NCBI GenBank assembly: GCA_021798115.1
Contig: JAJZYM010000001.1
Coordinates: 44,421 to 108,420 of the forward strand
Reading direction: 5' to 3'
From: Pseudomonadota bacterium
GTDB taxonomy: Bacteria; Pseudomonadota; Gammaproteobacteria; JAKAQQ01
DNA: 64,000 nucleotides
Shown here: in pieces, positions 10,348 to 64,000 of the stretch
Layout: the number at the start of each line of letters is the position of its first letter
How positions within the stretch are numbered: position 1 is the stretch's first letter
Made by a program: the position numbers and the translations under genes
The notes under the pieces: model-generated
The model's database searches: none
Seen by the model: only the letters and a program-made list of their open reading frames with translations
Told to the model about the DNA's origin: nothing

Positions 10348-10800
10348 TCAGTCGGTCCCGGCGCGGGGCCCGCACGGCTCCCACGACTCGGGGTTTTGCG
10401 CGGCGTGCGGATGTTCCGCACCGCCATAAATCTTGAGTTTCCGGAGCATGGAACGACCCAGGGGATTCTTGGGCAGCATCCCGGCGACGGCGTCGCGGAC
10501 GATCCCCTCGGGGTCGTGGCCGACGCGGGTGCGGAAGGCCTCACTTTTGAGTCCGCCGATATAGCCCGAGTGGCGGTGGTACATTTTCGCCTCGTCCTTG
10601 CGTCCGGTGACGGCAACCCGCGTGGCGTTCACGACAACGACGAAATCGCCGGTATCGACGTGCGGCGTGTAGACCGGCTTATGCTTGCCGCGCAAGCGAT
10701 GGGCGACGGCACTCGCCAACCGTCCGAGCGGGAGACCGGCGGCGTCGACCAGATACCAGCGGCGCGCAACGTCGTCGCGACGCGCGGAGCGTGTGCTCAT
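10348..10800 (-). CDS. rplM: 50S ribosomal protein L13
   Basis: ...[47 protein letters not shown]...[17 protein letters not shown] matches the L13 signature. It lies directly upstream of rpsI, the conserved rplM-rpsI operon. Confidence 0.9.
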
Positions 10801-10854
10801 TGCATCCTCGGAATCGATCCAGGGCCGATCATTATAGCACCGGGCGGGATCTTC

Positions 10855-11379
10855 TCAGGTCGCCTGGCGGTGCCGGGCGGCGGCCACCACGGCGCGGGCC
10901 TCCTCGACCCCGGCCCAACCGCGTACCTTCACGAACTTGCCCGTTTCGTGCGCCTTGTACTGCTCGAAAAAATGCGCGACAGTCGCCCGCCACCAGTCAG
11001 GGACATCGGGCAGATCCCTCCACCCGTCGTAGGCGGGTGTGAGTTTGGTCGTTGGCACGGCCACGACCTTCTCGTCCTCGCCTTTCTCGTCCTGCATGAG
11101 AAGAACGGCCACGGGCCGCGTGCGTAGAAGACTGGCGGGGAGCAGCGGGTAGGGCGTGGGCACAAGAGCGTCGAGAGGATCGCCGTCGTTGGCGAGCGTC
11201 TCGGGGATGTAACCGTAGTTGCAGGGATAAACCATCGCCGTGCTCAGGAAGCGGTCGACACGAAGGAGGTGCTGTTCTTTGTCGAACTCGTACTTGACCG
11301 GCAGCCCCTGGGCGGGGATTTCGACGAGGACGTCGAATTCACGGTCGGCGTCGTCGGACGGGCGGGAACGATCGGTCAT
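10855..11379 (-). CDS. ppa: inorganic pyrophosphatase
   Basis: [21 protein letters not shown]...[22 protein letters not shown] matches family I PPase motifs. The start was taken at MTDRSRP. Confidence 0.85.
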
Positions 11380-11498
11380 GGGGGCTCCACACGGCAATCA
11401 AGAAACATGAGCGTGTGGAATTCTAGCCCAACCGGCCCCTCTCCAAAAGATCGGGGTTTTTTCTACCATGAGGGCTCTCCTGCCTCGGACCCACGCGG

Positions 11499-12107
11499 AT
11501 GATGACGCTCTATACGGCCGCCACCGGCAACGGCGCCAAGCCCCTCCTCGTTCTTGAAGAGCTCGGCCTGCCCTACCGCCTGCATCTTCTCGATCTTGCC
11601 CGTCGCGAACAGGAGTCGCCCGCCTACCTCGCCTTGCACCCCGGAGGACGGATCCCCCTCTTACACGACGAGAGCAACGGCCTCGTTCTCTTCGAGTCCT
11701 TTGCGATCGCTCTCTACCTCTGCGAGAAGGCGGCGCGTCTTTTGCCGCTCGAACCGCGCACCCGCGCCCTGACCTTTCAGTGGACGGCCTACGTCGCCAC
11801 CAACCTCGAACCGCGCGGGCTCGTCCTCCACCGCGCGCAGCGCGAGGGCTGGATCGCGACGATCCCCCGCTCGTTCACCGAGGAGTACGACCGCTTTCTC
11901 GCCGTCCTGGACGAACATCTTGGAGACAGCCCTTTCCTCGCTGGGGAATTCACCGTCGCGGACCTTTTCGCGTACCCCTTCGCGCGCAATCTCGCCGCAC
12001 GCGACCCTGAGCGTTACGCCCGACTGCTTCGCCTCCAGAATTGGGCGACGGGCATCGGCGCGCGCGTCGCTGTTCGCGCCGCTTACGCGCGGCTCGAGCG
12101 CGCATGA
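11499..12107 (+). CDS. glutathione S-transferase family protein
   Basis: 202 aa with a GST N-terminal thioredoxin-like fold (LVLEELGLPYRLHLLDLARREQESPAYLALHPGGRIPLL, ESFAIALYL) and a C-terminal helical domain. Confidence 0.65.
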   Translation: MMTLYTAATGNGAKPLLVLEELGLPYRLHLLDLARREQESPAYLALHPGGRIPLLHDESNGLVLFESFAIALYLCEKAARLLPLEPRTRALTFQWTAYVATNLEPRGLVLHRAQREGWIATIPRSFTEEYDRFLAVLDEHLGDSPFLAGEFTVADLFAYPFARNLAARDPERYARLLRLQNWATGIGARVAVRAAYARLERA

Positions 12108-12958
12108 ACGGAACCACGCGCGAGCGACCCATCGGGGTCTTCGATTCAGGAGCGGGAGGCCTGACAGTCCTGCGCGCGCTCCGTGGCCGATTGCCGGGCG
12201 AACGTTTCCTCTATTTCGGGGATACGGCCCATCTCCCTTACGGGGACAAGAGCCCGTGGGCGGTGCGCCGACACGCACGGGCGGCCTGCGCACGGCTCGT
12301 CGCGGCCGAGATCAAGATGCTCGTGGTGGCCTGCAACACGGCCTCGGCCATCGCCCTCGACGATCTCACGCGTCGTTTCGCCCCGCTTCCGGTCTTGGGC
12401 GTCGTCGCCCCCGGTGCGGCGCGGGCGGCGGACACGGCCCGCGCGCGCATCGGTCTTCTGGCGACCGAGGCCACTCTCAGGACCGGCGCCTACACGCGCG
12501 CCATTCTCGAGCGGCGTCCAGGGCTCAGCGTGATCGGGGAAGCCGCACCCGTCCTGGTGGCCCTGGCCGAGCAGGGTTGGCACGAGGGTCCCGCCGCCGA
12601 AGCCTGCCTCGAACGCTATCTTGGCGCCTTACGGGCCCGCGCGCCCGACGCCGACGTTCTTCTTCTCGGGTGCACCCATTTCCCGCCGTTCCGCCCGACG
12701 CTTTTGCGGCTGCTCGGGCCAGGGATCACGGTGGTCGATTCGGCCGATGCCACGGCCGAGGCAGCCGCCGCGCTTCTTAAGGAAAAGAACCTTCTTCGTC
12801 CGGGGTCGGACGGGGGGCTCGTCGGGTGCACGGTCAGCGACAACGCCGAGAGATTCCGCCGCCTCGCCCCGTTATTTCTCGGCGAGGAGATCACCGAGAT
12901 CGGCGTAGAAGGGGGCGGCAAGGAAGGAGCACCGAACGCGGCGGGCGGCGGGTGCTGA
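12104..12958 (+). CDS. murI: glutamate racemase
   Basis: IGVFDSGAGGLTVL...LVVACNTAS...LLGCTHFP matches the two-cysteine racemase motifs. The ATG at 12104 overlaps the GST stop (ATGA). Confidence 0.85.
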   Translation: MNGTTRERPIGVFDSGAGGLTVLRALRGRLPGERFLYFGDTAHLPYGDKSPWAVRRHARAACARLVAAEIKMLVVACNTASAIALDDLTRRFAPLPVLGVVAPGAARAADTARARIGLLATEATLRTGAYTRAILERRPGLSVIGEAAPVLVALAEQGWHEGPAAEACLERYLGALRARAPDADVLLLGCTHFPPFRPTLLRLLGPGITVVDSADATAEAAAALLKEKNLLRPGSDGGLVGCTVSDNAERFRRLAPLFLGEEITEIGVEGGGKEGAPNAAGGGC

Positions 12959-12994
12959 GGCCTGCGCTCGCCGCCCGCTCAGCACGGCGGATCT

Positions 12995-13360
12995 TCAGGG
13001 CTTGGGCGGAGCGATGGGTTTGCGCGCCAGAACCCAGCGGGCCATGGCCTCGGCCTGGGCCAGGGTCAGATTGGGATGCGGAGGCATCGGAATTCCCCCC
13101 GTCCACGGATTCCAAACGCCGACACCGCCGTGGATGATCTTGTCGGCGAGATGCAGAACCGCCGTCTTGTCGCCACGGTAGTGGTACGCCACCCAGGCGT
13201 AGGCGGGGCCGACGATCTTGGCGTCGACGGCGTGGCAGACGAAGCAGCCCTGTTGCTTCATGAGGGCATGAACCGCGGATGTCGCCCGTGCCGAAGGAAA
13301 GGACAAGAACGCGACGACCAACAAAGAAGCCAGCGTGCCGAAGGAAAGGGGAATGCGCAT
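12995..13360 (-). CDS. monoheme class I cytochrome c (c551/c552-like) with signal peptide
   Basis: Signal peptide MRIPLSFGTLASLLVVAFLSFPSARA, then the heme-binding CFVCH motif and a distal Met region. Confidence 0.7.
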   Translation of the reverse strand: MRIPLSFGTLASLLVVAFLSFPSARATSAVHALMKQQGCFVCHAVDAKIVGPAYAWVAYHYRGDKTAVLHLADKIIHGGVGVWNPWTGGIPMPPHPNLTLAQAEAMARWVLARKPIAPPKP

Positions 13361-13415
13361 GAGCCCTCCGCTCGATGACAGGATTCCTGTCAATTATACC
13401 GTTAAGCCCGCACGC

Positions 13416-14849
13416 TCAGCCGCGGCTCGCCTCGACGCGAAGAATCCTGAGGGCGTTCGTCCCGCCCGCGACCCCCTCACGATCCCCGCGGGTCACGACC
13501 ACAAGGTCGCCCACCTTCACGGCTCCGATCTCGAGAAGACGTCGAACCGCTTCCCGAGGAACGTCGGATCCCGCCGCCAAGGGGTCGAAATCCACGGGGA
13601 CGACCCCCCGCATCAGGGTCACACGGGCGCGTGTGCGGGCGTTGCGGGTCAACGCGTAGATCGGCACCGCGGTGCGCACCCGCGAACAGAGCAGCGCCGT
13701 CGTCCCCGACTCGGTCAGCGCGGCGATCGCCTGCGCCCCGAGTCCGGAGGCGGCGTGGACGGCGGTCATGGCGATCGCCTCGTTGACCGTCTCCCACCGT
13801 TCGTCCCCGCGCAGCCGCGAACGGGTCGTGACACGTTCCTGTTCCGCACCCACACACACACGGGCCATGGCTTCGACGGCCTTGACAGGATGGCGACCGA
13901 CCGCCGACTCGGCCGAGAGCATGACCGCGTCCGTTCCGTCGAAGACGGCGTTGGCCACGTCGAGAACCTCGGCCCGGGTCGGCACGGGCGAGTGGACCAT
14001 CGATTCCATCATCTGGGTGGCGGTGATCACGAGCGCCTTCGTCTCGTGGGCCGTGCGCAGAATGCGCTTTTGGGCGCCGGCGAGTTCCCAGTCGCCGATC
14101 TCGACCGCAAGATCACCACGCGCCACCATCACCCCCGCGGCAATGTCGCACAGTGGGCGCACGTTGGCAAGAGCCTCGGCGCGTTCGATCTTGGCGATCA
14201 CCCCGGCGTCGGAGCCGGCCGCGTCGAGAAGACGATGGGCCTCGCGGACGTCGTCGGCGTCGCGGGCAAACGAGAGCGCCACGTAGTCGGCGCCAATGTC
14301 GGCCGCGGTGTGGATATCGGCGCGGTCTTTGTCGGTGAGGCAGAGAGCGCTCAAGCCCCCGCCCTGACGGTTGAGCCCCTTGTGGTCGCTCAAAACCCCC
14401 CCCGTCACGACCCGACAATCGACGGTGGTGGCGGTCGTGGCGGTCACACTCAGGACGAGTTGCCCGTCGTCGAGTAGGAGCCGATCGCCCGGGTGGACGT
14501 CGGAGGGAAGCGCCGGGTAGTTCACCCCGACCCGCCCGCCGTCCGCGGGCGCGTCCCCGAGTTCGGTATCGAGCACCAGACGATCGCCTTCAGCCAACGT
14601 GAGCGCGCCGCCGCGGAAACGGCCGATGCGGATCTTGGGCCCGGCCAGGTCGAGCAGGACCCCAACGTCACGGCCCACGCGGGACGCGGCCGCCCGCGCC
14701 TCGCGCGCCAGCCGCTCGATCAGGTCGCGGTCTCCGTGGGCGGCGTTGATGCGCACGAGATCGACCCCGGCGCGGACCATGGCCTCGAGAACGGCCCCGT
14801 CTTGGCTCGCGGGCCCAAGAGTGGCGATGATTTTGGTGCGCCGCATCAC
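13416..14849 (-). CDS. pyk: pyruvate kinase
   Basis: [15 protein letters not shown]... and the ...[12 protein letters not shown]... motif, with a full-length alignment-like match at 477 aa. Confidence 0.9.
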
Positions 14850-16036
14850 CCGCTCCGCCCGCGGGCGGCCAGCGCCTCGAGAGCGGGCATCCGCCCGCCC
14901 TCGAGGAGAGTGAGGAAGGCCCCCCCTCCGGTCGAAACGTAGGACATCGCCCCCAGAAGGCCGAAGCGCTCGAGCGCGGCGAGCGTATCCCCTCCCCCGA
15001 CGAGGGTGTAGCCGCGCGATTGCGCCACCGCCTGGGCCAGGCCGCGTGTGCCGTCGGCGAACTGAGGATGCTCAAAGACGCCGAGAGGTCCGTTCCAAAG
15101 AACCGTGCCAGCTTCGCGGCAGAGAGGCCCCCACGCGGCCACCGTCTCGGGACCGATGTCGAGGATCATGTCGTCCGCGCCCACGGCACCGAGCGGGCGG
15201 ACGTCGGCTTCGGCCGTCGGGTCCGGCGCGCGGGCGACGACCACATCGATCGGGAGCGGCACCTCGACCTTCCGCGCGCGGGCACGCGCAAGAAGAGCGG
15301 CCGTCGCGTCCACTTCCCCCGGTTCGTGGAGCGAGCGACCGACCCCGACGCCGCGGGCGGCGAGCACGGTGTTGAGGATGCCGCCTCCCAGAAGAAGGGC
15401 GTCCACCCTCTCGAGAAGCGCTCCAAGAAGGGAAAACTTCGTCGACACCTTCGCCCCCCCGACGATGGCAACCACCGGCCGCTCGGGGGCGTCGCGGGCC
15501 CGGGTGATGGCTTCGACTTCGGCGACGAGAAGAGGTCCGGCGCAAGCGCGGGGGGCGGCGAGGACAGCGCTGTGGGTCGAGGCCTCGGCACGGTGTGCGG
15601 TCGCAAAGGCGTCCATGACGTAGACGTCACCGAGCGTGCCGAGAACGCGCCCCCAGTCCTCGTCGTCGCGGACCTCGCCCGGAAAGAAGCGGAGATTCTC
15701 GAGGAGGAGGATCCTCTCCGGCCCTCCCCATCCCGAGATCAGGGCGTCGGGGGTTGCGCAGAGACGGACACGTTCGCCCAAGATCTCGTCGAGAGCGGCG
15801 GCCACCGGAGCGAGAGACAGCGACGGATCCCACGTCCCCCGTGGGCGGCCGAGATGGGAGAGGCAGGCCACGCGAGCGCCACCCTCGAGCAGGAGGCGCA
15901 ACGTGGGGAGAGCGGCGCGCAGCCGGGCGTCGCTCGCGACCCGCCCGCCCTCGAGCGGGACGTTGAAATCCTCGCGCACGACGACCCGTCGCCCGCGCCA
16001 GTCGACGTCGTGAAGCGTCGGGAACACAACGGCCAC
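14846..16036 (-). CDS. pgk: phosphoglycerate kinase
   Basis: FPTLHDVDWRGRRVVVREDFNVP...VVAIVGGAKVSTKF...VSTGGGAFL. GTG at 16036 sits 2 nt downstream of the gap stop, so the in-frame N-terminal extension of the ORF was rejected. Confidence 0.9.
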   Translation of the reverse strand: MAVVFPTLHDVDWRGRRVVVREDFNVPLEGGRVASDARLRAALPTLRLLLEGGARVACLSHLGRPRGTWDPSLSLAPVAAALDEILGERVRLCATPDALISGWGGPERILLLENLRFFPGEVRDDEDWGRVLGTLGDVYVMDAFATAHRAEASTHSAVLAAPRACAGPLLVAEVEAITRARDAPERPVVAIVGGAKVSTKFSLLGALLERVDALLLGGGILNTVLAARGVGVGRSLHEPGEVDATAALLARARARKVEVPLPIDVVVARAPDPTAEADVRPLGAVGADDMILDIGPETVAAWGPLCREAGTVLWNGPLGVFEHPQFADGTRGLAQAVAQSRGYTLVGGGDTLAALERFGLLGAMSYVSTGGGAFLTLLEGGRMPALEALAARGRSG

Positions 16037-16038
16037 GG

Positions 16039-17049
16039 TCAACGGGCCGCGAGCCACGCGTGCGCGGTATCGAGCATGCGGTTCGAGAACCCCCACTCGT
16101 TGTCGTACCAGGCACAGACCTTGACGAGACGGCCCCCATTGACGCGCGTCAGTGTCGCGTCGTAGATCGACGAGGCCGGTTGATGGTTGAAGTCGATCGA
16201 GACCAAGGGTTCCTCATTGACGACCAGAATCCCGTGGAGCCCCCCCTCGGCGGCCCGCCGGAGAACGGCGTCCACCTCTTCACGGCTCGTCTCGCGGGCG
16301 GCCACAAACGTCAGATCGAGGAAGGAGACGTTGGCGGTCGGCACCCGCACGCTGTAGCCGTCGAGACGGCCCGCCAGCTCGGGCAGGACGAGACCCACGG
16401 CCACCGCCGCACCGGTCTTGGTCGGGATCATCGACAGCAGTGAAGAGCGGGCGCGTCGGGGATCCTTGTGGTAGACGTCCAAAACCACCTGGTCGTTGGT
16501 GGCGGCGTGCACCGTCACCATGAGACCGCGCTCGATCCCGATCTCGCGCGCCAAAGGGTGCACGAGCGGCGCGAGACAGTTGGTGGTGCACGAGGCGTTC
16601 GAGACAATCGTTTCCGCGGCCGTGAGTCGCTCGTGGTTGACCCCGTAGACGATCGTGGTCACATCGTCGCCGGCCGGAGCCGAGATGAGGACTTTGCGCG
16701 CCCCCGCGGCGAGATGCTGGCTGGCCTTGGCACGGCTGGCGAACGCTCCCGTGCACTCGAGAACGAGATCGATCCCGAGCTCTTTCCAGGGAAGCCGGCT
16801 CGGGTCGCGTTCGCTCAGCACACGAATCTTGGTCTCACCCACCACCAGAGACTCCCCCTCGCTCCGGACCGGGACGGGGAACGCCCCGTGGACCGAGTCG
16901 TGGCGGGTCAGGCGCACGTTGCTCTCGAGATCGGCGAGATCGTTGATGGCGACGATCTCGAAATCCCGAGACCGGCGGGTTTCGACGAACGCGCGCAGCA
17001 CGTTGCGTCCGATGCGGCCGTAGCCGTTGAGGGCAAGTCGCGGACTCAT
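16039..17049 (-). CDS. gap: glyceraldehyde-3-phosphate dehydrogenase
   Basis: [14 protein letters not shown]...[13 protein letters not shown]. The ATG overlaps the tkt stop (ATGA). Confidence 0.9.
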
Positions 17050-19082
17050 GCTTGATCTCCGGATGAAGAAGCCAAAAGCGTACGGGCGCGCGCGCAGACG
17101 GTCTCGACATCGAAGCCGAGGGCACGCGCAACCTCGGGTCCGGGCGCCGAGAGCCCGAAGCGGTCAAGGCCCAGAACGGCGCCGCGGGGGCCGGCGAGGC
17201 CGGCCCAGGCGGCGGTGGCCCCAGCCTCGATGACGAGGCGGCGTTCGAGAGCGGAGGGCAGAATCCGCTCCCGGTAGGCAGGATCTTGCCGTTCGAAGAC
17301 CTCACGCGAGGGCATCGAAACCACACGGACGGCGCGCCCCTCGGCTGCCAGGCGGGCGGCCGCCTCGGTGGCCAGCGCGACCTCGGAGCCGGTGGCCAGA
17401 AGCAGGAGCTCGGGCGGCTTCGACGGTTCGCTCACGATGTAGGCCCCACGCGCGACGTCCTCCTCCACCGGATGCGGAAGCGGGGGGAGACCCTGGCGGC
17501 TGAGCACGATGAGGGTCGGCCCGTCGCGTCGCGTGAGGGCATCGCGCCAGGCGACGACCGTCTCGAACGCGTCCGCGGGTCGCCAGAGGGTGATCCCGGG
17601 AATGAGGCGCAACGAAGCGAGCTGCTCGATCGGCTGGTGGGTCGGACCGTCCTCCCCGAGCCAGATCGAGTCGTGGCTGAGGAGGTAGATCGCCGGAAGA
17701 CGCATGAGGGCCGCGAGACGCAGGGCGTTGCGAGCGTAGTCGGTGAAGACCAGGAAGGTGGCCCCGAACGGGATCAGCCCGCCGTGGAGAGCGAGCCCGT
17801 TGACGGCCGCGACCATGGCAAACTCGCGCACGCCGTAGTGAAGATAACGGCCCTCGAAGGCCCCCGGTCGGATCGCCTCCGCCCCCTCCCAAAGCGTCGC
17901 GTTCGACTCGGAGAGATCGGCCGAGCCGCCGACGAGCTCCGGAAGAGCCGGCGCGATCGCTCCGAGCACCGCATGCGAGGAGCGCCGGGTGGCCTCGGGC
18001 TTCGTAAGCGTGCGGGTGCGCTCGAATGCGTTCCGCCAGCAGGCCTCGAGATCTTCGGGGAGATCCCGCCTCAAGCGCCGCTCGAACTCCTCGGCCAGCG
18101 CGGGGAACGCACGGCGGTAGGACGCCAAACGATGCTCCCACTCGGCCACCAGCGCGGCTCCGGCCTCCCGGCGATCGAAGGCGGCGTAGATTTCGGGAGG
18201 AATCTCAAACGGCGGATAGGGCCAACCGAGTTCCGCGCGCGCGCGCGCCACCTCTTCCGCCCCGAGGGGGGAGCCGTGGGCTTCGGCCGTTCCCTGCTTG
18301 TCGGGAGCTCCGTACCCGATCACCGTACGGCAGAGAATGAGGGTCGGCCGATCCTCGCCGCTGCGGGCCTCGAGGATTGCACGGTTCACCGCCTCACCAT
18401 CCAGGCCGTCGACGGGGCCGAGCACGCGCCAGCCGTAGGCACGGAAACGGCCGGCCGTATCATCACGGAACCAGCCGTCGACGGCTCCGTCGATGGAGAT
18501 GCCGTTGTCGTCGTAAAGAACCACAAGGCGGCCGAGTCCCAGGCTTCCGGCAAGTGAGGCGGCCTCGTGCGAGACGCCTTCCATCAGGCAGCCGTCGCCC
18601 ACGAACACGTAGGTGCGATGATCGACGAGGGTGTGGCCCGGACGGTTGAAGGTTTGGGCCAGAAGACGCTCGGCCAACGCCATGCCCACGGCGTGGGCGA
18701 AGCCCTGACCGAGAGGACCGGTGGTGGTCTCCACGCCCGGCGTGAGTCCGTGCTCCGGGTGCCCCGGTGTCCGGGAGTGAAGCTGGCGAAAAGCCTTGAG
18801 ATCCTCGATCCCGAGCTCGTAGCCGGTCAGGTGCAGGACCGCGTAGAGCAGCATCGACCCGTGTCCGTTCGAAAGCACGAAACGGTCGCGATCCGGCCAG
18901 TCCGGATGACGGGGAGAGAAACGGAGATGGTCGAGAAACAGGGTTTCGGCGATATCGGCCATGCCCATGGGCATGCCGGGATGACCCGAGCGCGCTTTCT
19001 CGACGGCGTCCATGGCGAGAGCGCGGATGGCGTTGGCCCTGAACCGGCGTCCTGTCGGGGAAGGGCGAGGATGGGACGGCAC
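17046..19082 (-). CDS. tkt: transketolase
   Basis: [31 protein letters not shown]...[13 protein letters not shown]... at 678 aa. The N-terminal start may lie a few codons inside the ORF. Confidence 0.9.
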
Positions 19083-42485: not shown

Positions 42486-42491
42486 GGCCGG

Positions 42492-43022
42492 TTATCCTCC
42501 TGACGTTGTCGATAAGGGCATAAAGACGCGTGTCACGACCCATCCTCCCGTGCCGTTGGCGAGAATCTCTCTCAGCACAAGGCCGTTGGGATGGATGGCG
42601 ACAATCTTGCCGTCGTTCTGCCCGAGGTAATTGCCGTAGGTCACACGATGGACGATCCCGTGCGGATCCTGCACAAGCGCGTAGATGTCTTTCCCCACAT
42701 GAAGCGTTCCGACGAGCTTGAGACTGTCTAGCGGGAAGCGCTCGAGATACTGACGGGGCCGGTTCGGGTTGGGGCGCACCGCCGAGGGCAACGCGCGGAT
42801 GCTGGGGACAAACGGCGAGCGCAAGAGCTCGGCGGAGAACGCCGGTGGGTGATACGGCGCCGGCTGTGGCACGGGCGCGAGAGGGGCGGGCGGAGCGTTT
42901 TCGACACGATGCACCCAGGCGCGCAAACTTTCCCCACCGCCTCCGCAGGCAGCCAAAGGCAGTACCAAGGCGAGAACCATCGCCGCCCGAGTGCCGAGTG
43001 CACGGAAACGCCTTACGCTCAC
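42492..43022 (-). CDS. pilP: type IV pilus assembly lipoprotein PilP
   Basis: 176 aa with the lipobox LPLAACGG. Its position between pilO and pilQ fits PilP. Confidence 0.75.
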   Translation of the reverse strand: MSVRRFRALGTRAAMVLALVLPLAACGGGGESLRAWVHRVENAPPAPLAPVPQPAPYHPPAFSAELLRSPFVPSIRALPSAVRPNPNRPRQYLERFPLDSLKLVGTLHVGKDIYALVQDPHGIVHRVTYGNYLGQNDGKIVAIHPNGLVLREILANGTGGWVVTRVFMPLSTTSGG

Positions 43023-54126: not shown

Positions 54127-54137
54127 GGAAGCCAACC

Positions 54138-55295
54138 ATGGAACGCGAACAAGCCGTCAAATTCATGCAGGATCTCCTGCGTATCATGGTCCAGCGCCAA
54201 GCCTCCGATCTCTTCATTACCGCCCAGTTCCCGCCGGCACTCAAGATCGACGGTGAGATCCAAGCCGTTACCGACCGACCCTTCAACGAAGAACAGACCG
54301 CGGTTCTCGTGCGCGCCATCATGAACGACCGTCAGAGCCGCGAGTTCGACGCCACCAAGGAACTCAGTTTTGCCATCAGCCCTCGGGGCATCGGCCGTTT
54401 TCGTGTCAGTGCCTATCTTGAGCAAGGCCGAGTCGGCGCGGTCCTGCGCGTGATCAACACCGACGTGCCGACACTCGAAAAGCTTGGTTTGCCCCTGATC
54501 ACCCACGACATTGCCATGTCCAAGCGCGGGCTCGTGCTCGTCGTCGGTGCCACCGGTTCGGGCAAGTCCACAACCCTCGCGGCCATGGTCCGCCACCGCA
54601 ACGAAAACAGCCGCGGGCATATTGTGACGATCGAAGACCCGATCGAGTATGTGCACCGCCACATGGGATGCATCGTCACTCAGCGCGAGCTCGGAGTCGA
54701 CACGGAGTCGTGGGAGAACGCCCTCAAAAACACGCTCCGTCAAGCTCCCGATGTCATTCTCATCGGCGAAATCCGCGAACAAACGACGATGCAGTACGCG
54801 GTCGAATTTGCCGAAACCGGCCACCTCTGCCTGAGCACGCTCCACGCGAACAGTGCCAATCAGGCGCTCGATCGCATCATCAATCTCTATCCCAAAGAGA
54901 AACGGCAACAACTGCTCATGGATCTCTCCCTCAACCTCCGAGGCATGATCTCACAACGGCTTCTGCGCAAGGCAAGCGGCGAGGGACGCATCGCCGCGAT
55001 GGAGATTCTCATCAACACACCCTACGTCGCCGATCTGATTTTCAAAGGGGAAGTGGCTCAGCTCAAGGAGGTCATGGCCCGCTCCCGCCAAGCCGGCATG
55101 CAGACCTTTGACCAACATCTCTTTGATCTTTACGAGGAGAAAGCCATCACCTACGAAGAGGCGCTGCGGAACGCCGATTCGCAAAACGAGCTCCGTCTTC
55201 GCATCAAACTCGAAAGCAAACGTAGCCCGCAATCGTTCGACCAGGAAATCGAGACCCTGCATCTGCAGGACGTCGATTCCGGTCGCCCGCTGTGA
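54138..55295 (+). CDS. pilU: PilT-family ATPase PilU
   Basis: ...ASDLFITAQFPPALKIDGE..., GATGSGKSTT, IGEIREQTTMQYAVEFAETGHLCLSTLHA and a C-terminal extension at 385 aa. It is immediately downstream of pilT. Confidence 0.85.
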   Translation: MEREQAVKFMQDLLRIMVQRQASDLFITAQFPPALKIDGEIQAVTDRPFNEEQTAVLVRAIMNDRQSREFDATKELSFAISPRGIGRFRVSAYLEQGRVGAVLRVINTDVPTLEKLGLPLITHDIAMSKRGLVLVVGATGSGKSTTLAAMVRHRNENSRGHIVTIEDPIEYVHRHMGCIVTQRELGVDTESWENALKNTLRQAPDVILIGEIREQTTMQYAVEFAETGHLCLSTLHANSANQALDRIINLYPKEKRQQLLMDLSLNLRGMISQRLLRKASGEGRIAAMEILINTPYVADLIFKGEVAQLKEVMARSRQAGMQTFDQHLFDLYEEKAITYEEALRNADSQNELRLRIKLESKRSPQSFDQEIETLHLQDVDSGRPL

Positions 55296-55305
55296 GACGA
55301 CGGCC

Positions 55306-56361
55306 TTGAACCTCGAACCTTATCTGCGCCTCATGGCGGAACACAAAGCCTCGGATCTTTATCTCTCGGTCGGCGCCACCATCAAGATCCGGGTCGAGGG
55401 CCGTCTGGGATCGATCGGGAAAACGGCTCTCGACGCCACCTTGCTCACAAACGTTCTGGAATACCATCTGGGCGAGGAGCAGAGAACATCCTTCGCCAAG
55501 CACGGGCAAGTGGACATGGCCCTGCAGATCGAAGGGCTTGGGCGCTACCGCCTGAACGTCTTCCGCCAACGTGGTCAACCCGCCATGGCCGTGCGCTTCA
55601 TCCCGGAGTCAATCCCGGATCTCGACACACTGGGTCTCCCGGGAATCATCAGCGACCTGGCTCAACTTCGGCGGGGGCTGATTCTGGTGGTCGGGTCGAC
55701 CGGCGCCGGGAAATCCACCACTCTCGCCTCCCTACTCGACTGGCGCAATGCACACCACGCCGAGCACATTCTCACGGTTGAGGATCCGATTGAGTACACC
55801 TTCATCAACAAGAAATCGGTCGTTAACCAGAGGGAAGTCGGAACGGACGTCGTCTCTTACGAGAAGGCCCTACTGAGCGCGCTTCGCGCCAGCCCCGACG
55901 TGGTGATGATCGGCGAGATCCGCGACCGGGCAACCATGAGTTCCGTGCTTGAGCTTGCCACGACGGGGCACGTGGTGTTTGCCACCCTGCACACGGGCAA
56001 CGCCTACCAAGCTCTGGAGCGGATCCTCAATCTCTACCCCGTCGACGCGCACCGTCAAATTGTGACTGATCTCGGAGAAGTCTTGCGGGCCGTCATCGCG
56101 CAGCGCCTCGTGCCCAACAAGGAGGAACGGCTTGTGGCGGCTGTCGAGGTCATGCTCAATACGCCTCATATTGCCGATCTCATCCGCAAGGGGGAGATCG
56201 GCCAACTTCACGAGGCGATGGAAAGCAGCCGCGAGCAGGGGATGCAAACCTTCGACCGCGCCCTTGCCCGCCTTTACGAGCAGGGGACCATCAGCCTCGA
56301 AACCGCACTCACCCACGCCGACTCGCGGACCAATCTCGAATCCATCCTGCGTTTTGGCTGA
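55306..56361 (+). CDS. third PilT/PilU-family retraction-type ATPase paralog
   Basis: ...ASDLYLSVGATIKIRVEGR..., GSTGAGKSTT, IGEIRDRATMSSVLELATTGHVVFATLHT. The start is either TTG at 55306 or ATG at 55333, and the ORF overlaps the pilU end. Confidence 0.75.
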   Translation: MNLEPYLRLMAEHKASDLYLSVGATIKIRVEGRLGSIGKTALDATLLTNVLEYHLGEEQRTSFAKHGQVDMALQIEGLGRYRLNVFRQRGQPAMAVRFIPESIPDLDTLGLPGIISDLAQLRRGLILVVGSTGAGKSTTLASLLDWRNAHHAEHILTVEDPIEYTFINKKSVVNQREVGTDVVSYEKALLSALRASPDVVMIGEIRDRATMSSVLELATTGHVVFATLHTGNAYQALERILNLYPVDAHRQIVTDLGEVLRAVIAQRLVPNKEERLVAAVEVMLNTPHIADLIRKGEIGQLHEAMESSREQGMQTFDRALARLYEQGTISLETALTHADSRTNLESILRFG

Positions 56362-59993: not shown

Positions 59994-61421
59994 TTACAGG
60001 GCCGGGGGATCGCGGCCAACGGCGTTGGTTTGACCGGCACGTGCCACGACCTCGCGCGGCGTCCGGGCGAGCCACCACCAGACGTAGAGACACGGAACGA
60101 GGATCAGAGCAGGAGCCAGCCACAACGGAAATGTCAGCGGCAGAAGTGTAGCGACGAGCACGATAAGCACAAGCAGGTTGGCCACCTGAGGGATGAGGAC
60201 GTGGCGCGCCCGCCCGCGCAAACGCCGGTCGCGGGCGTAGAAAGCCAAGGCCGTATTCGCCAGAATATGGCCGAGGAATAGCGCGATGCTGCTCGCGGTG
60301 ATCAGGATGAGATAGCCCTGGAACGGCCCAAGGATGAGGCCCGTCAGAAGCGAGAGACCCAAAGCGACGAGCATCACCCAACGCACCGCACGCTTTGGGT
60401 TACGCGTAGCGTCGAGTTCGGACCATGAAGAGGGGAAGACCACACCATCACGGGCCATGGCGTAGACGAGGCGCGCGCAGCTCAGAACCGGAGACAAACT
60501 CCCCGCATACATCGAATTCAGGATGAGGATGACCAGAATCACCGCCGCCCAGAGACCCACGCCTGATCGGGCCAGCACGACACCGGGGACAAGGGCGTGA
60601 GCAAAACTTCCCATCCGCTCCGGCCCCCAAGCGACGGTCAGCGCATAGGCAAGAAAGACAAAGAGGAAAGAGGACAGGAGATAGGCCAGCAAAACCGCCC
60701 AGCGAATGCGCCTCTCGGGAGTTGCCGTCTCTTCGCCCAGCGATGTGGCGGCCGACGAACCAGAGACCGTGAACATGCCAAGGAGGACCCCAAGGGCGAA
60801 GACCGACAGAGGCACGTGGGCGTCGTGCAGCGTGAACACCGCGGACGTGTTGACGGGGCCCGCAGCAACCACAAGATCAATGGCAAAGATGAAAAGTGCC
60901 ACGATCTCGAAAGTTCCCGTCCACACCGCGTAACGCAGGGAAGGGCGTACCCCACGCACCGCAAGAAGATAGAGCAATCCCGTGAGCAACATCAGGACGG
61001 GGATCCAGAGCCAAAGCGGTGCCGTCACACCAAAGAGGGTGGTCAACACACCGGGCACGAAGACGCCGGCGACGAACAGAAGAGCGTTGGTAATGATGTT
61101 GAAGTAAGACAAGAGGAAAAGCAGCCCTCCGATTGTCCCCCAACGCCCGCCCATGCCGTGCGCGATGAACCCGTAAAAACCACCGGCCGAGGCCACGTGC
61201 TTGGAGAATTGCACCGTTGTGTTCACCATGAGCGCGGCGGCGACAACAGCGACAAGAAGGGCCAGAGGCATGGCCCCCTGCGCATAGGCCGCCACCCCCG
61301 TAAGCGTGGCAGCCATCGCTCCAGCCGGTGCGATCAGGGAAATCGACTGGTAGGTGAGTTGCCAGAACCCGACAGCATGAGGGTCCAGCGTGGCGGTAGC
61401 CGGGTCGACGGACTCGCGCAT
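59994..61421 (-). CDS. APC-superfamily amino acid/polyamine permease
   Basis: About 12 TM segments with APC-like motifs (…FWQLTYQSISLIAPAGAMAAT…, …GFYGF…). The start was taken at MRESVDP (ATG at 61421). Confidence 0.7.
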   Translation of the reverse strand: MRESVDPATATLDPHAVGFWQLTYQSISLIAPAGAMAATLTGVAAYAQGAMPLALLVAVVAAALMVNTTVQFSKHVASAGGFYGFIAHGMGGRWGTIGGLLFLLSYFNIITNALLFVAGVFVPGVLTTLFGVTAPLWLWIPVLMLLTGLLYLLAVRGVRPSLRYAVWTGTFEIVALFIFAIDLVVAAGPVNTSAVFTLHDAHVPLSVFALGVLLGMFTVSGSSAATSLGEETATPERRIRWAVLLAYLLSSFLFVFLAYALTVAWGPERMGSFAHALVPGVVLARSGVGLWAAVILVILILNSMYAGSLSPVLSCARLVYAMARDGVVFPSSWSELDATRNPKRAVRWVMLVALGLSLLTGLILGPFQGYLILITASSIALFLGHILANTALAFYARDRRLRGRARHVLIPQVANLLVLIVLVATLLPLTFPLWLAPALILVPCLYVWWWLARTPREVVARAGQTNAVGRDPPAL

Positions 61422-61541
61422 AAATGAAGCTCCCGAGGGACACCTCATCATAAGCGGAGTCCATGACTCACGGACGAAAACGCGCCATAGTGGCCGCGGT
61501 TGACGCTCGCGCAACGAGGCAGGGAGGCGGAAGATGCCTCC

Positions 61542-62690
61542 ATGCTCCGCGGTCTTCCCGTCCTCGCAACACTCGTCGCTCTCGTGCTGCTTGCCGGTTG
61601 TGTTCGTCCGTCCCATGTGGGCTCCCCGTCGCTCCACCCGTACGATTTTTCCTACCGTGTTCGTTGGCACGGAGCGGGGCGCGACCCGCGGGTCGTGGTT
61701 TTTTCCGATGCCGACCAGACGTACTTCATCGTTCCGTCATCCGGGGAAAGGCGGGCACGCGTCTTCGCGGAGATCGGCAACAGCTTGAGGCCGGTGGATC
61801 TCCAACAGGGGTCCCCCCCGTATCTCATCGCCGGATGTGTCGCCCGACGTTGGCTTCTCACCGACGGACGAGCGGGGTACGGCGCGGCGGTGGCCCTCCG
61901 TTCACTGCACGGACACCTCTGCGGCGGCGATACGACTCAAGGATTTTTCGGTCGTTTTGCCACTCGCGCTGGAGCGGCGGAACTGACGCCAAAACCCCAC
62001 GCCCGTGGGTCAAACGCGCGCAATCGGCCTTCGTCCAACCGCAGGCGTTTTGCCGTTTTTCTCCACCCCATCCCAGAGAGCCTCTCCGGATGCCACCGTT
62101 GCGCGCAGCCGGAGCGCGTCGCGCAGTCGCGCAGCGCCACTCTCCGCGCTCTGGGGCGGAACTGCCGTCCGGTGTCGGTGTTCGGACGTGGGACAACCAT
62201 CTTGCTCAGAGCGCCCGTCGGCTGCCATCTGCGTGCGGCCTACGCGCTCCAGGGGTATCACCTCCTCCGCCTCGATGGGCAGAGGATCGGGAACAGAGTG
62301 ACCCGGATCGCTCGCGCCCATCCCCCGTTACTCCTCGACTTCAATCGGGGGCTCGTCGCCCTCGTGGCCCGCCCATCCGGCGACGGGGACATCGGACGCC
62401 TCTTCCTCGGTCCTCTCAGGCCGGTCGGACGGCATTCCGCGCCGGCCTGGCCCCTCCGGCGAAGTCTCCGTCGGACCCTGCTCGCTTGGTGCCAACGGGC
62501 GGGGTGTCACACGAACGGACGCATTCCTCGTTTTCGGCTCGCGGCGGGGAGATTCCGGGGTTCGTTCCGGACGGCGCTCCGCAAGCTCTTGAGGCATCTG
62601 GCACGGCAGGGGCTTGTGCTCGATCTTTATCTCGACCCCGCGCACCACAGGCTTCGCGTTCGCACGCTTCGGTTTCCTCACCGCTCATGA
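61542..62690 (+). CDS. lipoprotein, candidate PilL-like component (R64 thin-pilus/ICE type IVb pilus style)
   Basis: Lipobox signal peptide MLRGLPVLATLVALVLLAGC. The N-terminal beta-rich region (...VVVFSDADQTYFIVP...YLIAGCVARRWLLTDGRAGYGAAVALRS) is followed by an Arg-rich C-terminal half. It is the first of three co-directional, overlapping genes that end in a liposecretin. Confidence 0.4.
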   Translation: MLRGLPVLATLVALVLLAGCVRPSHVGSPSLHPYDFSYRVRWHGAGRDPRVVVFSDADQTYFIVPSSGERRARVFAEIGNSLRPVDLQQGSPPYLIAGCVARRWLLTDGRAGYGAAVALRSLHGHLCGGDTTQGFFGRFATRAGAAELTPKPHARGSNARNRPSSNRRRFAVFLHPIPESLSGCHRCAQPERVAQSRSATLRALGRNCRPVSVFGRGTTILLRAPVGCHLRAAYALQGYHLLRLDGQRIGNRVTRIARAHPPLLLDFNRGLVALVARPSGDGDIGRLFLGPLRPVGRHSAPAWPLRRSLRRTLLAWCQRAGCHTNGRIPRFRLAAGRFRGSFRTALRKLLRHLARQGLVLDLYLDPAHHRLRVRTLRFPHRS

Positions 62691-63058
62691 CGATCCTGAA
62701 CCATCGGCTTGTCGCCGCCTTCGTTCTGTTGCTCGCGGCCGGACTCGTTTCGTCGGCTGTCCGGGCCCGTCCCCGTCCTCGGCTCATTATCGTCAACAGC
62801 ACGCTCCTTTCTGACCACGGATGGAGGACACAGCGCAGTCTCGAGGACACGCTGCAACGGTGGTGTCGCCGGACGCACAGCCGCCTTGTCTGGCGCCCTC
62901 GCCACGACTACCGGCTTGAGGCACAGGCGACCTTTCACGGTTCTTTTGTCCACGCTCTCGATGTCCTCGCCCGTGCTCTCGCTCTCGCTCACGTCCCGCT
63001 CGCCCTTCGCTACTACCGTGGCAATCGCGTCTTGGTGGTCAAGAGATGGACGCCGTGA
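62687..63058 (+). CDS. small secreted protein (signal peptide), candidate PilM(R64)/TcpQ/BfpG-type secretin-associated protein
   Basis: This ORF is not in the supplied ORF track and was read directly from the sequence. ATG at 62687 overlaps the upstream TGA. The 123-aa product (MTILNHRLVAAFVLLLAAGLVSSAVRA...LEDTLQRWCRRTHSRLVWRPRHDYRLEAQATFHGSFVHALDVLARALALAHVPLALRYYRGNRVLVVKRWTP) ends with TGA at 63056-63058. Confidence 0.4.
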   Translation: MTILNHRLVAAFVLLLAAGLVSSAVRARPRPRLIIVNSTLLSDHGWRTQRSLEDTLQRWCRRTHSRLVWRPRHDYRLEAQATFHGSFVHALDVLARALALAHVPLALRYYRGNRVLVVKRWTP

Positions 63059-64000
63059 ATCTCCGGCGGCGGCGCACGCTCGCCATCCTCCTCCTCGTGC
63101 CGGGATTGGCTTCCTGTGTCGCTCCCCCCAGCCACATCGGTTCGTTCCTGCGTGCCACGGGGACGCACGCCCGCGCACTCCTTCATCACACAGAACCCAC
63201 CGCACCCACCGTGCTCTTGGCCGTCCGACGGGGCGTCTGGCTTGGGGCGCAGCCGACACACCGCCGCTCCGTCCGTCCGCCATGGCTCGACACACGCATT
63301 ACCCTCGTCGCCCGGGGGTCGGCCTCGACCCTGCTTTCCGAAGCCGCCCATCTTGCCGGACGACGGCTGCGTTTCGAGGATCTTGGCGCCTCCTCCAACC
63401 CGAAGTCGTCCGCTCGTTCCTTCTGCCCCGAAGTCGACACCACCGCTTACACAGGCAGTTTGAAACGCTTTCTTGATCGCCTGACTGCACGTTGCCGGAT
63501 CTGGTGGCGTGTGCGTGGAAGCACCCTTGTGGTCTTCCGCCTGCGAACCCGGACGTTCGTTGTCGACGTCCCTCCCGGGGTCACACGCAGCAACGAGGTC
63601 CTCGGCAGCGAGGGCGGACTTGGCGACAACGCGGGGACGGCCTCAACCTACGGGGCAGGATCAGGGTCCGTCACGGAACAGCAGGAAGAAGGGCGCACAC
63701 AGTTCGCCGACGCACTCGATCCCTGGCCCTCGCTTCGCCGTCACCTGGCGGCTCTCCTCACACGGTCCGGCCGTGTCATTCTCGACGAAACAGCCGGTAC
63801 AGTCACCGTCACCGACACGCCGCCCGCTCTTCACCGGATCGCCCGCTATCTGCGGACGATGGATCACATCCTGGCCCGCCAAGTGGCCGTGGTCGTTCGC
63901 GTGTACAGCGTGCGCCTCAAGCGGCGCAGTCGTTTTGCCGCGGCCGCCGACATCGTCTACAAGAGTCTCGGCGCCGGTGTTTCGGGCGCACTCACCACGA
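63046..64000 (+). CDS. secretin-family lipoprotein (liposecretin; BfpB/TcpC/PilN-R64-like), 5' partial, continues beyond window end
   Basis: ATG at 63046 gives the lipobox signal peptide MDAVNLRRRRTLAILLLVPGLASC. Downstream, ...GRVILDETAGTVTVTDTPPALHRIARYLRTMDHILARQVAVVVRVYSV matches the secretin N3-domain/secretin-domain junction motif seen in pilQ of this same window. It is not in the ORF track because no stop falls inside the window. Confidence 0.55.
   Translation, partial: MDAVNLRRRRTLAILLLVPGLASCVAPPSHIGSFLRATGTHARALLHHTEPTAPTVLLAVRRGVWLGAQPTHRRSVRPPWLDTRITLVARGSASTLLSEAAHLAGRRLRFEDLGASSNPKSSARSFCPEVDTTAYTGSLKRFLDRLTARCRIWWRVRGSTLVVFRLRTRTFVVDVPPGVTRSNEVLGSEGGLGDNAGTASTYGAGSGSVTEQQEEGRTQFADALDPWPSLRRHLAALLTRSGRVILDETAGTVTVTDTPPALHRIARYLRTMDHILARQVAVVVRVYSVRLKRRSRFAAAADIVYKSLGAGVSGALTT

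Follow-up and report, generated by a model that had tools for sequence, protein, structure and literature searches.

Does the gene trio at the right-hand end of the 64,000-nucleotide stretch analysed here (the window) mark the entry into a conjugative or genomic island, or does it belong to the resident chromosome? The sequence-only reading had recognized a lipoprotein, a small secreted protein, and a liposecretin at this site, had likened them to the pilus modules of R64, PAPI-1, and pKLC102, and had considered an island beyond the window edge possible. According to our analysis, positions 61542 to 64000 very probably represent the 5′ end of a self-contained chromosomal type IVb pilus operon of the R64 thin-pilus (PilN/PilO2) family, not of a conjugative element.

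The coordinates confirmed that the trio is co-directional and overlapping. G1 (61542..62690, + strand) encodes a lipoprotein of 382 residues, not 380 as first counted; G2 (62687..63058, + strand) encodes a secreted protein with the expected 123 residues, a Sec-type signal peptide, and no cysteine; and G3 (63046..64000, + strand) encodes a PilN-family lipoprotein secretin, of which the first 318 of 513 codons are located in the window, its 3′ end lying approximately 587 nt past the window end (L001 10360..11901). G1 and G2 overlap by 4 nt (ATGA). The overlap of G2 and G3 comprises 13 nt if G3 starts with the ATG at 63046 and 4 nt if it starts with the GTG at 63055; both starts were chosen by gene callers, resulting in 513 or 510 residues, respectively. 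The trio had been described as lying downstream of an APC permease gene (59994..61421, − strand), which does adjoin it, but is divergent from G1 rather than a co-directional upstream neighbor. The 120-nt divergent intergenic region between the permease start and G1 (61422..61541, as placed by the gene calls) is presumed to be the operon promoter region. No sigma-70-like or terminator-like site was found within it; a GGGAGG sequence is present at 61522-61527, 14 nt 5′ of the G1 ATG. When compared with their orthologues (46 to 84% amino acid identity), all 11 genes of the operon displayed an excess of substitutions at the third codon position, with values per codon position of 0.36/0.34/0.60 for G1 and 0.21/0.22/0.57 for G2.

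The small protein G2 is a predicted secreted secretin partner of the TcpQ/BfpG type and not a lipoprotein. It matched Pfam TcpQ (PF10671) with an E value of 7e-16 (58.5 bits, above the cut-off of 27), chain R of PDB entry 9u5s, i.e., the 114-residue partner in the BfpB-BfpG complex, with an E value of 0.0034, and the small TcpQ protein of Polaromonas with BLASTP E values of 5e-9 (pairwise) and 3e-7 (25-protein reference set); its orthologues are 74 to 77% identical. G3 features the lipobox L-A-S-C (LAS↓C, the arrow marking cleavage), and its visible part matched NCBIfam TIGR02520 (PilN family type IVB secretin; E = 4e-25) and Secretin_N (E = 6e-4). Extension of the terminal open reading frame revealed the secretin C-domain, in agreement with its initial description as a liposecretin: the full-length protein gave E values of 1.3e-11 with PF00263 and 7e-59 with TIGR02520 (199.7 bits, below the curated cut-off of 287.65), the next-best NCBIfam model being MshL with 45.8 bits. 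BLASTP matches were obtained with R64 PilN (27% identity, E = 8e-36) and Polaromonas PilN (35%, E = 2e-55), and the E value with BfpB (9u5s_A) was 5e-30. On sequence grounds, G3 is clearly homologous to PilN-family secretins, with formal equivalog membership in TIGR02520 not being reached. The position of a TcpQ-type gene directly upstream of a liposecretin gene also bears out the suggested likeness to tcpQ-tcpC and bfpG-bfpB.

Whereas HMM searches on the trio matched G2 to TcpQ and G3 to TIGR02520, G1 had no direct Pfam or NCBIfam match, with TcpQ and PilL absent even at E ≤ 1. The N-terminus of G1 reads MLRGLPVLATLVALVLLAG↓C and includes the lipobox L-A-G-C (LLAG↓C). Residues 298 to 374 aligned to the TcpQ domain of G2 (hhalign E = 6.6e-6, probability 85%), the C-terminal region matched the C-terminal TcpQ region of R64 PilL as located by a Pfam scan (BLASTP E = 0.001), and the N-terminus matched the large TcpQ protein of Polaromonas (BLASTP E = 2e-4); in addition, CagX+TcpQ proteins were reached from G1 by exhaustive HMM search. 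The AF2 model of G1 was poor, with a mean pLDDT of 44 and values of about 75 in the C-terminal domain, for which the best, but weak, fold matches were Xanthomonas VirB7, the VirB9 C-domain, and GspD N0. We classify G1 as a PilL-like outer-membrane lipoprotein predicted to consist of two beta domains, the N-terminal one being VirB9/CagX-like, followed by a domain of the TcpQ/N0 type at the C-terminus. The correspondence originally drawn with pilL-pilM-pilN does not extend to the small protein, which is of the TcpQ/BfpG type and not a PilM (PF07419); a large PilL-like protein, a small TcpQ protein, and PilN follow one another, as on plasmid 1 of Polaromonas sp. JS666.

The genes further downstream were read from contig JAMDBE010000089.1, which shares 2.6 kb with the window at 99.9% identity (2 mismatches). 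The operon consists of 11 genes and spans roughly 10.2 kb, G1 to G3 forming its 5′ end. Extension yielded PilO2-like, PilP-like, ATPase, platform protein, PilS-type pilin, and PilV-like genes, as had been anticipated. Specifically, G4 is a PilO2-like protein encoded at the PilO2 position; its match to Pfam PAP_PilO (PilO2, PF06864) was below the cut-off (E = 0.024, 13.9 bits versus 26.7), while a four-sequence PilO2 profile aligned over 252 columns (hhalign probability 97%, E = 8.9e-11). The PilP-like G5, likewise at the PilP position, matched TIGR03021 (PilP) below the cut-off (E = 1.9e-6, 28.9 bits versus 34.65) and R64 PilP with a BLASTP E value of 0.001. G6 is a GspE/PilB-type assembly ATPase (T2SSE E = 1.5e-57, above the cut-off; R64 PilQ, BLASTP E = 5e-40), and G7 is a GspF/PilC-type platform protein (T2SSF E = 9e-25, above the cut-off; R64 PilR, BLASTP E = 2e-21). 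The PilS-type major prepilin G8 exceeded the cut-offs of both PF08805 (40.3 bits versus 22) and N_methyl (22.4 bits versus 21.2), and its cleavage site NQGG↓WTLLELL resembles that of R64 PilS, DKG↓WAILE. G9, encoded after the pilin gene, is a probable PilM-like protein: it had no match to Pfam PilM (PF07419), but matched a four-sequence PilM profile (probability 78%, E = 1.8e-5; the alignments are shallow, and a two-sequence PilM profile gave nothing), and its position is that of PilM in the Polaromonas plasmid, two metagenomic loci (L021 and L022), and Tfp7. The PilV-like minor pilin G10 matched Shufflon_N below the cut-off (E = 7e-4, 19.6 bits versus 27.5) and R64 PilV over 165 residues (BLASTP E = 5e-4), its site RPHG↓WSLLD resembling DRG↓WASLE of R64 PilV. 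The last gene, G11, encodes a lineage-specific secreted protein with a signal peptide and eight cysteines; no match was obtained in any family library used. The operon contains no genes for a prepilin peptidase, a retraction ATPase, or a lytic transglycosylase, and tblastn with the R64 proteins detected neither PilU (prepilin peptidase) nor PilT (lytic transglycosylase) in the window and four related loci. The expectation that the rest of the system would follow was borne out for the ATPase and the pilin as well as for the platform protein and a PilV-like gene, but not, within the examined loci, for a prepilin peptidase, relaxase, or type IV secretion system (T4SS).

The BLASTP matches are colinear with R64 pilL, N, P, Q, R, S, and V and with the Polaromonas plasmid pil genes. 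Together with the TIGR02520 and PilS matches, this gene order supports the reading of an R64-type (PilN-family) type IVb module. The module is distinct from the chromosomal type IVa pilMNOPQ cluster, which is located at 40338-45329. The operon shares with the R64 (IncI1) thin pilus genes pilI-pilV the order L-(x)-N-O-P-Q-R-S-...-V, a PilN-type lipoprotein secretin, PilO2-like and PilP-like proteins, a PilQ-type ATPase and a PilR-type platform protein, and a PilS-type pilin and a PilV-like minor pilin that both carry a G↓W site; R64 PilL, the counterpart of the PilL-like G1, is a lipoprotein ending in a TcpQ domain. It differs in that identities to the R64 proteins are only 24 to 29%, that pilI, pilJ, pilK, pilT, and pilU as well as a shufflon, Rci, and an adjacent tra/trb T4SS are lacking, that the extra small TcpQ protein G2 occupies the R64 pilM position while the PilM-like G9 follows the pilin gene, and that G11 is additional. 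Shufflon and Rci are missing in many non-IncI members of the R64 type. PAPI-1 and Tfp7, both accepted as R64 variants, have operons that lack PilU as well (PMC3984277). By its published description, Burkholderia pseudomallei Tfp7 is a chromosomal R64 variant with TcpQ2 and without PilL2 or PilU2; it comprises about 9.6 kb, occurs genus-wide, and shows the order TcpQ2-N2-O2-P2-Q2-R2-S2-M2-V2, similar to the operon described here, with no operon-borne prepilin peptidase and no linked conjugation genes (PMC3984277). In contrast to Tfp7, our operon has a PilL-type gene (G1) besides the TcpQ protein, and no pilT2 is located downstream.

The best secretin matches outside the clade (32 to 35% identity) were found in the pil modules of Polaromonas sp. 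JS666 plasmid 1, L021, and L022. The Polaromonas module has both a large CagX+TcpQ protein and a small TcpQ protein, followed by PilN-PilO2-PilP-ATPase-T2SSF-pilin-...-PilM-PilV; the small protein is missing in L021 and the large one in L022, the pil order being otherwise Polaromonas-like. In these modules, CagX, OmpA, and TcpQ are clearly recognized by Pfam in the PilL-type protein, while G1 has diverged too far to match any of them directly. Extra PilT-like ATPases are encoded in the Polaromonas plasmid and L021, but not in L022. EPEC BfpB-BfpG (PDB 9u5s) and Vibrio cholerae TcpC-TcpQ share with our operon a small non-lipoprotein partner of N0 fold encoded directly upstream of a lipoprotein secretin; their operons, however, begin with the pilin gene, which is the eighth gene here, and encode inner-membrane components of their own (BfpC/D/E and TcpR/D/S/T/E). 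This pilin-first layout was not encountered: the genes are ordered as in R64, and the homologues of PilO2, PilP, and PilV belong to the R64 type (the BFP/TCP proteins compared being BfpB and BfpG).

The suggestion that the trio is the edge of an integrative conjugative element (ICE) or conjugative genomic island, with the pilus stabilizing mating pairs as in R64, PAPI-1, and pKLC102, draws on the relatives just described, whose pil modules follow VirB8/9/10 genes on conjugative elements and whose secretin genes are located directly beside VirB8, CagX/VirB9, TrbI/VirB10, TrbL, TrbH, and ArdC genes. Moreover, 2338 of the 2571 records with a secretin match in a plasmid collection were typed as conjugative, and a tRNA gene abuts the operon. 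This tRNA-Arg(CCG) gene follows G11 and has its 3′ end toward the operon, an orientation that would fit an old insertion targeted to the tRNA gene; the direct repeat of the tRNA 3′ end that an att site would leave was not present at the other operon boundary. Past the tRNA gene, 10 kb of housekeeping genes encode cytochrome c, BMFP, RNase PH, Ham1, PepN, a HemN-like protein, and an aminotransferase, and the upstream flank contains three pilT-type genes, recG, ubiC, ubiA, and the APC permease gene. In the 10 kb to each side, the called genes with their precomputed Pfam families included no relaxase, T4SS, or integrase, and six T4SS/ArdC proteins and Rci had no tblastn match in the window or its flanks. 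An atypical composition from position 61500 onward, which might have been expected of an island, was not observed: the operon has a GC content of 63 to 70% and a GC3 of 0.66 to 0.79, like neighboring genes, and its RSCU correlated with that of the other window genes with r = 0.952, compared with 0.967 ± 0.012 for size-matched control subsets. Every related contig examined has this operon at the corresponding site; among them are diverged relatives, in which the flanking genes are 71 to 84% and the operon genes 46 to 84% identical; no empty site was found among the few existing genomes of the clade. An island is contradicted for the 20 kb examined, and the notion that the module leads into a mobile one, which we consider extremely improbable, was rejected because of the housekeeping genes on both sides, the synteny, and the absence of transfer genes within 10 kb. 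Adjacent PilL, TcpQ, and PilN genes at the end of a contig do not by themselves constitute evidence for an ICE. Judging from these comparisons, the operon is an apparently ancestral, vertically inherited part of the chromosome in a small clade of uncultured Gammaproteobacteria. Since its nearest outside relatives adjoin VirB8/9/10 genes, the module looks like a conjugation-type pilus kept in the chromosome, as in the case of Tfp7; its probable origin is a mating-pair pilus encoded by a conjugative element.

By homology, the ATPase G6 and the platform protein G7, together with G4 and G5, would polymerize G8, with G10 as a minor pilin or tip adhesin. G8 and G10, both having the R64-type G↓W site, would depend for cleavage on a prepilin peptidase whose gene lies outside the operon; as for PAPI-1 and Tfp7, this is probably the enzyme of the type IVa system. 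The filament would exit through the acylated secretin G3. BfpG binds BfpB in a 17:17 stoichiometry and serves its assembly (PMC12531336); modelled on this pair and on TcpQ and TcpC, G2 would bind the N-terminal lipoprotein linker of G3 at a ratio of about 1:1 and be needed for G3 assembly, and G1 may be a second secretin-associated outer-membrane lipoprotein. Such a pilus would most likely serve adhesion, aggregation, or biofilm formation. Alternatively, the chromosomal operon might act in trans for a conjugative or mobilizable element elsewhere in the genome, with the PilV-like adhesin recognizing recipients. R64-family pili are typically accessories of conjugation, and G10 retains the PilV constant region; however, no shufflon repeats, Rci, or transfer genes were found, G10 is 70 to 71% conserved from end to end within the clade, which is what a fixed adhesin would show, and all Burkholderia strains possess a chromosomal R64 variant without linked transfer genes (PMC3984277), so we regard a role in trans as unlikely. 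We would also give little credence to the view that the machine is mainly devoted to protein export, with adhesion a lesser role and G11 as a secreted substrate or pilus-associated factor. TCP exports TcpF, and CFA/III exports CofJ; G11 overlaps the end of G10, is 63 to 69% conserved, and was found only together with this operon, which, like its signal peptide and cysteines, would suit such a function. G11 nevertheless shows no similarity to TcpF or CofJ, the argument is one of analogy, and export would be compatible with a pilus function.

The operon is a divergent addition to the type IVb pili of the R64 family, branching deeply and fixed in the chromosome; outside its small clade, nothing exceeds 35% identity to its secretin G3. 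Beside Burkholderia Tfp7, it provides a natural instance in which a conjugation-type pilus has been retained in the absence of transfer genes. A more far-reaching and rather doubtful interpretation is that a conjugation-type thin-pilus module lost its T4SS, was fixed as a core-genome organelle in this uncultured, apparently acidophile-like gammaproteobacterial clade, and subsequently underwent three kinds of remodelling. Its two TcpQ/N0-fold proteins, G2 and the VirB9-like/TcpQ-like lipoprotein G1, could build a collar of two layers around the secretin; the clade-specific secreted G11 could represent a novel substrate dependent on the pilus or a partner at its tip; and all envelope parts would have been recoded to a pI of 10.6 to 12. 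If this were true, G1-type proteins, combining a VirB9-like and a VirB7/N0-like domain, would directly connect T4SS outer-membrane core proteins with type IVb pilus secretin accessories in evolution. Owing to the extreme arginine-rich recoding, half of the components go undetected at standard HMM cut-offs, an effect worth considering when such genomes are annotated. The same uncultured lineage also carries type IVa pilus and Pel polysaccharide genes, and the operon therefore bears on how such organisms attach and aggregate.

The operon that begins at the right edge of the window is a divergent addition to the type IVb pili of the R64 family, noteworthy for its isolation in sequence space, its two TcpQ-fold proteins, the clade-specific G11, and the extremely basic, arginine-rich composition of its envelope parts. 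Its first three genes are overlapping plus-strand ORFs in high-GC DNA (63 to 67% from 61.4 kb of the window onward). G1 (61542..62690, 382 aa) is a lipoprotein with the N-terminus MLRGLPVLATLVALVLLAG/C, a standard lipobox; G2 (62687..63058, 123 aa) has a Sec signal peptide with no cysteine in the vicinity of the cleavage site; and G3 (318 codons from 63046 up to where the window stops) carries the lipobox LAS/C, with cleavage before the C. An ATGA overlap of 4 nt joins G1 to G2. Public gene calls place the start of G3 either at ATG 63046, which gives a 13-nt overlap with G2, or at GTG 63055, which shortens the overlap to 4 nt. The three genes noticed in the sequence-only reading are real: G2 matches TcpQ (PF10671, E 7e-16, above cut-off), and the part of G3 inside the window matches both Secretin_N (E 6e-4) and, at E 4e-25, the type IVB secretin model of the PilN family, TIGR02520. 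They had been placed downstream of an APC permease, but the permease gene (59994..61421; E 4.5e-26 with Pfam AA_permease) is read from the minus strand, so that G1 is divergent from it across a 120-nt spacer.

Scans for promoters and terminators gave nothing upstream of G1, and one weak minus-strand terminator-like site after tRNA-Arg(CCG). The sole Shine-Dalgarno-like element before G1, GGGAGG (within 61522-61544), lies 14 nt upstream of the G1 ATG (61542) and 6 nt upstream of an out-of-frame ATG at 61534, which opens an 84-aa ORF (61534..61788). All 11 operon genes show an excess of substitutions at third codon positions, as expected for coding sequence under purifying selection. This matters because gene finders are unstable in the G1-G2 stretch: on one contig that is 99.94% identical over both genes (L017, 900-1900, compared with L018), the public call has three antisense ORFs in place of G1 and G2. 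The absence of G2 from the supplied ORF track, pointed out previously, fits this pattern.

An exact look-up of G2 returned five public contigs. The remainder of the operon is described here from contig JAMDBE010000089.1 (GCA_023487365.1, "MAG: Gammaproteobacteria bacterium"), which differs from the window at 2 of 2601 positions and whose coordinates equal those of the window minus 52686. On this contig, G3 (10360..11901) is a complete secretin of 513 aa (PF00263, E 1.3e-11; TIGR02520, E 7e-59 with 199.7 bits, below the cut-off of 287.65) with 27% identity to PilN of R64 (NC_005014, used throughout) and 35% to PilN of Polaromonas JS666 plasmid 1. It is followed by G4 (11898..13094, 398 aa), a PilO2-like protein that reaches only E 0.024 with Pfam PAP_PilO but aligns with four PilO2 sequences in hhalign (prob 97%, E 9e-11), and by the PilP-like G5 (13075..13635, 186 aa; TIGR03021, E 2e-6, just below cut-off; BLASTP to R64 PilP, E 0.001). 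G6 (13632..15095, 487 aa) is the assembly ATPase (T2SSE, E 1.5e-57; R64 PilQ, E 5e-40) and G7 (15092..16144, 350 aa) the platform protein (T2SSF, E 9e-25; R64 PilR, E 2e-21). The major prepilin is G8 (16176..16685, 169 aa), with a PilS match above cut-off (PF08805) and an N-methylation motif. G9 (16682..17134, 150 aa) has a signal peptide and no family match; a comparison with two PilM sequences failed, and a four-sequence PilM profile gave a moderate hhalign match (prob 78%, E 1.8e-5). G10 (17131..18414, 427 aa) is PilV-like (Shufflon_N, E 7e-4; R64 PilV, E 5e-4). G8 and G10 carry processing sites of the R64 style, cut between G and W (NQGG/WTLLELL and RPHG/WSLLDAL, compared with DKG/WAILE in PilS and DRG/WASLE in PilV of R64). 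The last gene, G11 (18411..19016, 201 aa), encodes a protein with a signal peptide, eight cysteines and no family match, whose homologues form only four clusters among 5.8 billion sequences, all within the clade. The proposal of an R64-type pilus module was right, and on extension G3 does show a secretin C-domain. The gene-by-gene naming after pilL-pilM-pilN was partly right: it fits G3 as a PilN-family secretin and does not fit the small protein G2, which has a TcpQ domain.

The extracytoplasmic proteins of both pilus systems (window 61542-64000 and 40338-44271; JAMDBE010000089.1 8856-19016) are extremely basic, rich in arginine and poor in lysine. G1, G2, G4, G5 and G9 have pI values of 11.6 to 12.0 with 11 to 16% Arg and less than 4% Lys, and the type IVa PilN, PilO, PilP and PilQ proteins have pI values of 10.1 to 11.9; the cytoplasmic proteins G6, type IVa PilM and citrate synthase are near 6. 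The R64 and Polaromonas homologues, by contrast, have pI 6 to 10 and 1 to 6% Arg. This composition resembles an acidophile-type envelope proteome, and it is probably the reason for the sub-threshold HMM scores.

G1 gave no match in direct Pfam or NCBIfam scans. A word-based search found homologues in 6 clusters, and 1.8 billion representatives searched exhaustively by HMM yielded six matches; neither search led to a named family, the sole link running via remote proteins with CagX and TcpQ domains. These comprise three proteins of about 290 aa with a CagX/VirB9-like domain where the G1 N-terminus aligns, and one 379-aa protein with CagX plus TcpQ, for which the alignment covers almost the full length. 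The C-terminus of G1 (298-374) aligns with the TcpQ domain of G2 (hhalign E 6.6e-6, prob 85%) and with the TcpQ-domain region of R64 PilL (BLASTP E 0.001), likewise a lipoprotein that ends in a TcpQ domain. Polaromonas JS666 plasmid 1 encodes a large "TcpQ domain-containing protein" with CagX, OmpA and TcpQ domains, and it is this protein that the N-terminus of G1 matches (BLASTP E 2e-4; hhalign E 0.002). The AF2 model of G1, computed from 6 sequences, was poor (pLDDT 44), with a C-terminal beta-alpha-beta-beta-alpha-beta-beta domain at about 75. Foldseek of this model against the PDB gave nothing at E <= 0.001; the best matches, all weak and thematically consistent, were Xanthomonas VirB7, the VirB9 C-domain and the N0 domains of GspD and LspD, the same structural neighbours as reported for BfpG (PMC12531336). 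With moderate confidence, we take G1 to be a much-diverged PilL-type lipoprotein. The PilL-type proteins of plasmid-borne R64-like pili (L013, 6744-8057; L021, 8607-10004; protein P0011) combine CagX/VirB9-like and TcpQ domains, sometimes with an OmpA-like domain, and therefore look like fusions of outer-membrane core folds of type IV secretion systems (T4SS), used as a secretin accessory.

Among other families, MSHA was rejected on the secretin score (MshL 45.8 bits versus PilN 199.7), T2SS for want of a pseudopilin set and, as judged from the gene list, Tad/Flp, there being neither a Flp-type pilin nor an RcpA-type secretin and the ATPase scoring far better as GspE/PilB than as TadA. Secretins within the clade are at least 61% identical, and outside it there is a sharp fall to at most 35%. 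The two nearest outside loci, both metagenomic (L021 and L022), read [CagX+TcpQ or TcpQ]-PilN-PilO-PilP-ATPase-T2SSF-PilS-(PilT-like)-PilM-PilV, directly after VirB8, VirB9 and either VirB10 or TrbL/TrbH/ArdC, an arrangement shared by the Polaromonas plasmid; moreover, tblastn with the secretin matched 2571 plasmid records, 2338 of which are typed conjugative. The kin of the module are thus conjugation pili, and the earlier suggestion that the window edge might lead into a conjugative or genomic island was reasonable, but an island is not what stands at this site. Upstream of the operon lie yggT, proC, three PilT-type ATPase genes, recG, ubiC, ubiA and the permease gene. Directly 3′ of G11 a minus-strand tRNA-Arg(CCG) gene points its 3′ end at the operon, and beyond it lie genes for cytochrome c, BMFP, RNase PH, Ham1/RdgB, aminopeptidase N, a HemN-like radical-SAM protein, an aminotransferase and a second cytochrome c. 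No repeat of the tRNA end was found at the other operon border; searches for att-like and shufflon-like repeats gave chance matches only, and tblastn of the window and flanks found no VirB4-, VirB8-, VirB9- or VirB10-like proteins, TrbL, ArdC or Rci. In composition the operon is like its neighbours (GC 63 to 70%, GC3 0.66 to 0.79), and its codon usage gives r = 0.952 against 25 other genes of the window, compared with 0.967 +/- 0.012 (minimum 0.90) for subsets of these 25 matched in size.

Decisive on the island question is synteny: the diverged relative JGI 3300051397 (L006, L019) has the same operon, with gene identities of 46 to 84%, between the same flanks (permease 84%, ubiA 81%, recG 71%, cytochrome c 77%). 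The operon therefore already stood here in their common ancestor and has since passed down vertically. When metagenomes were scanned with the APC permease for empty sites, the one homologue returned (54%) was non-syntenic and uninformative. A published precedent for a chromosomal R64 variant without transfer genes is Tfp7 of B. pseudomallei, ordered TcpQ2-N2-O2-P2-Q2-R2-S2-M2-V2 and lacking PilL2 and PilU2 (PMC3984277). In another relative, ENA k141_415663 (L008, 12258-13384), what comes after the operon is not tRNA-Arg and cytochrome c but two ORFs on the minus strand and a gene for a TacA1-type antitoxin. The locus yielded no tRNA, and the difference may stem from a local insertion or rearrangement.

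From the gene content and homologies we infer how the pilus may work. G6 and G7, acting with G4 and G5, would drive assembly of a filament formed by G8, with G10 as a putative minor pilin or adhesin. The prepilins would be cut by a peptidase encoded elsewhere, none being present in the operon or the window; PilS2 of PAPI-1 is processed by the type IVa PilD (PMC3984277). The filament would exit via the acylated secretin G3, whose N-terminal lipoprotein linker may be bound by G2 as modelled on BfpB-BfpG, a 17:17 complex in which BfpG is essential for secretin assembly and has an N0-like fold but is not a pilotin (PMC12531336). In PDB 9u5s, chain A is matched by G3 and chain R by G2. G1 could be a second N0-fold accessory protein. 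The type IVb operon contains no retraction ATPase, and adhesion or aggregation would be the default function.

The window also holds a canonical, Pfam-confirmed type IVa pilM-pilN-pilO-pilP-pilQ operon (40338-45329, minus strand; PilM_2, E 4e-93), with AMIN and STN domains in the PilQ secretin; tblastn of G3 against the window (E <= 1e-3) matched only G3 itself and not PilQ. For the 477-aa ORF directly downstream of pilQ (38867-40300, minus strand), Pfam gives nothing at E <= 1e-5 and the coding signature is weak (GC2 0.58 versus GC3 0.69); as drawn, it may be no true gene. Three tandem PilT/PilU-type ATPase genes (53062-56361, plus strand; 354, 385 and about 351 aa) stand beside proC/yggT, before recG. 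At the lower-GC left end of the window (56 to 64%, versus 66 to 71% at 10-37 kb), two large minus-strand genes (1645-8595), one pelB-like (TPR and PelB C-terminal beta-barrel, E 4e-39) and one pelA-like (GH114, E 2e-13), point to a Pel-type exopolysaccharide locus, which adjoins the only tRNA gene of the window, tRNA-Gln (9826-9899, minus strand).
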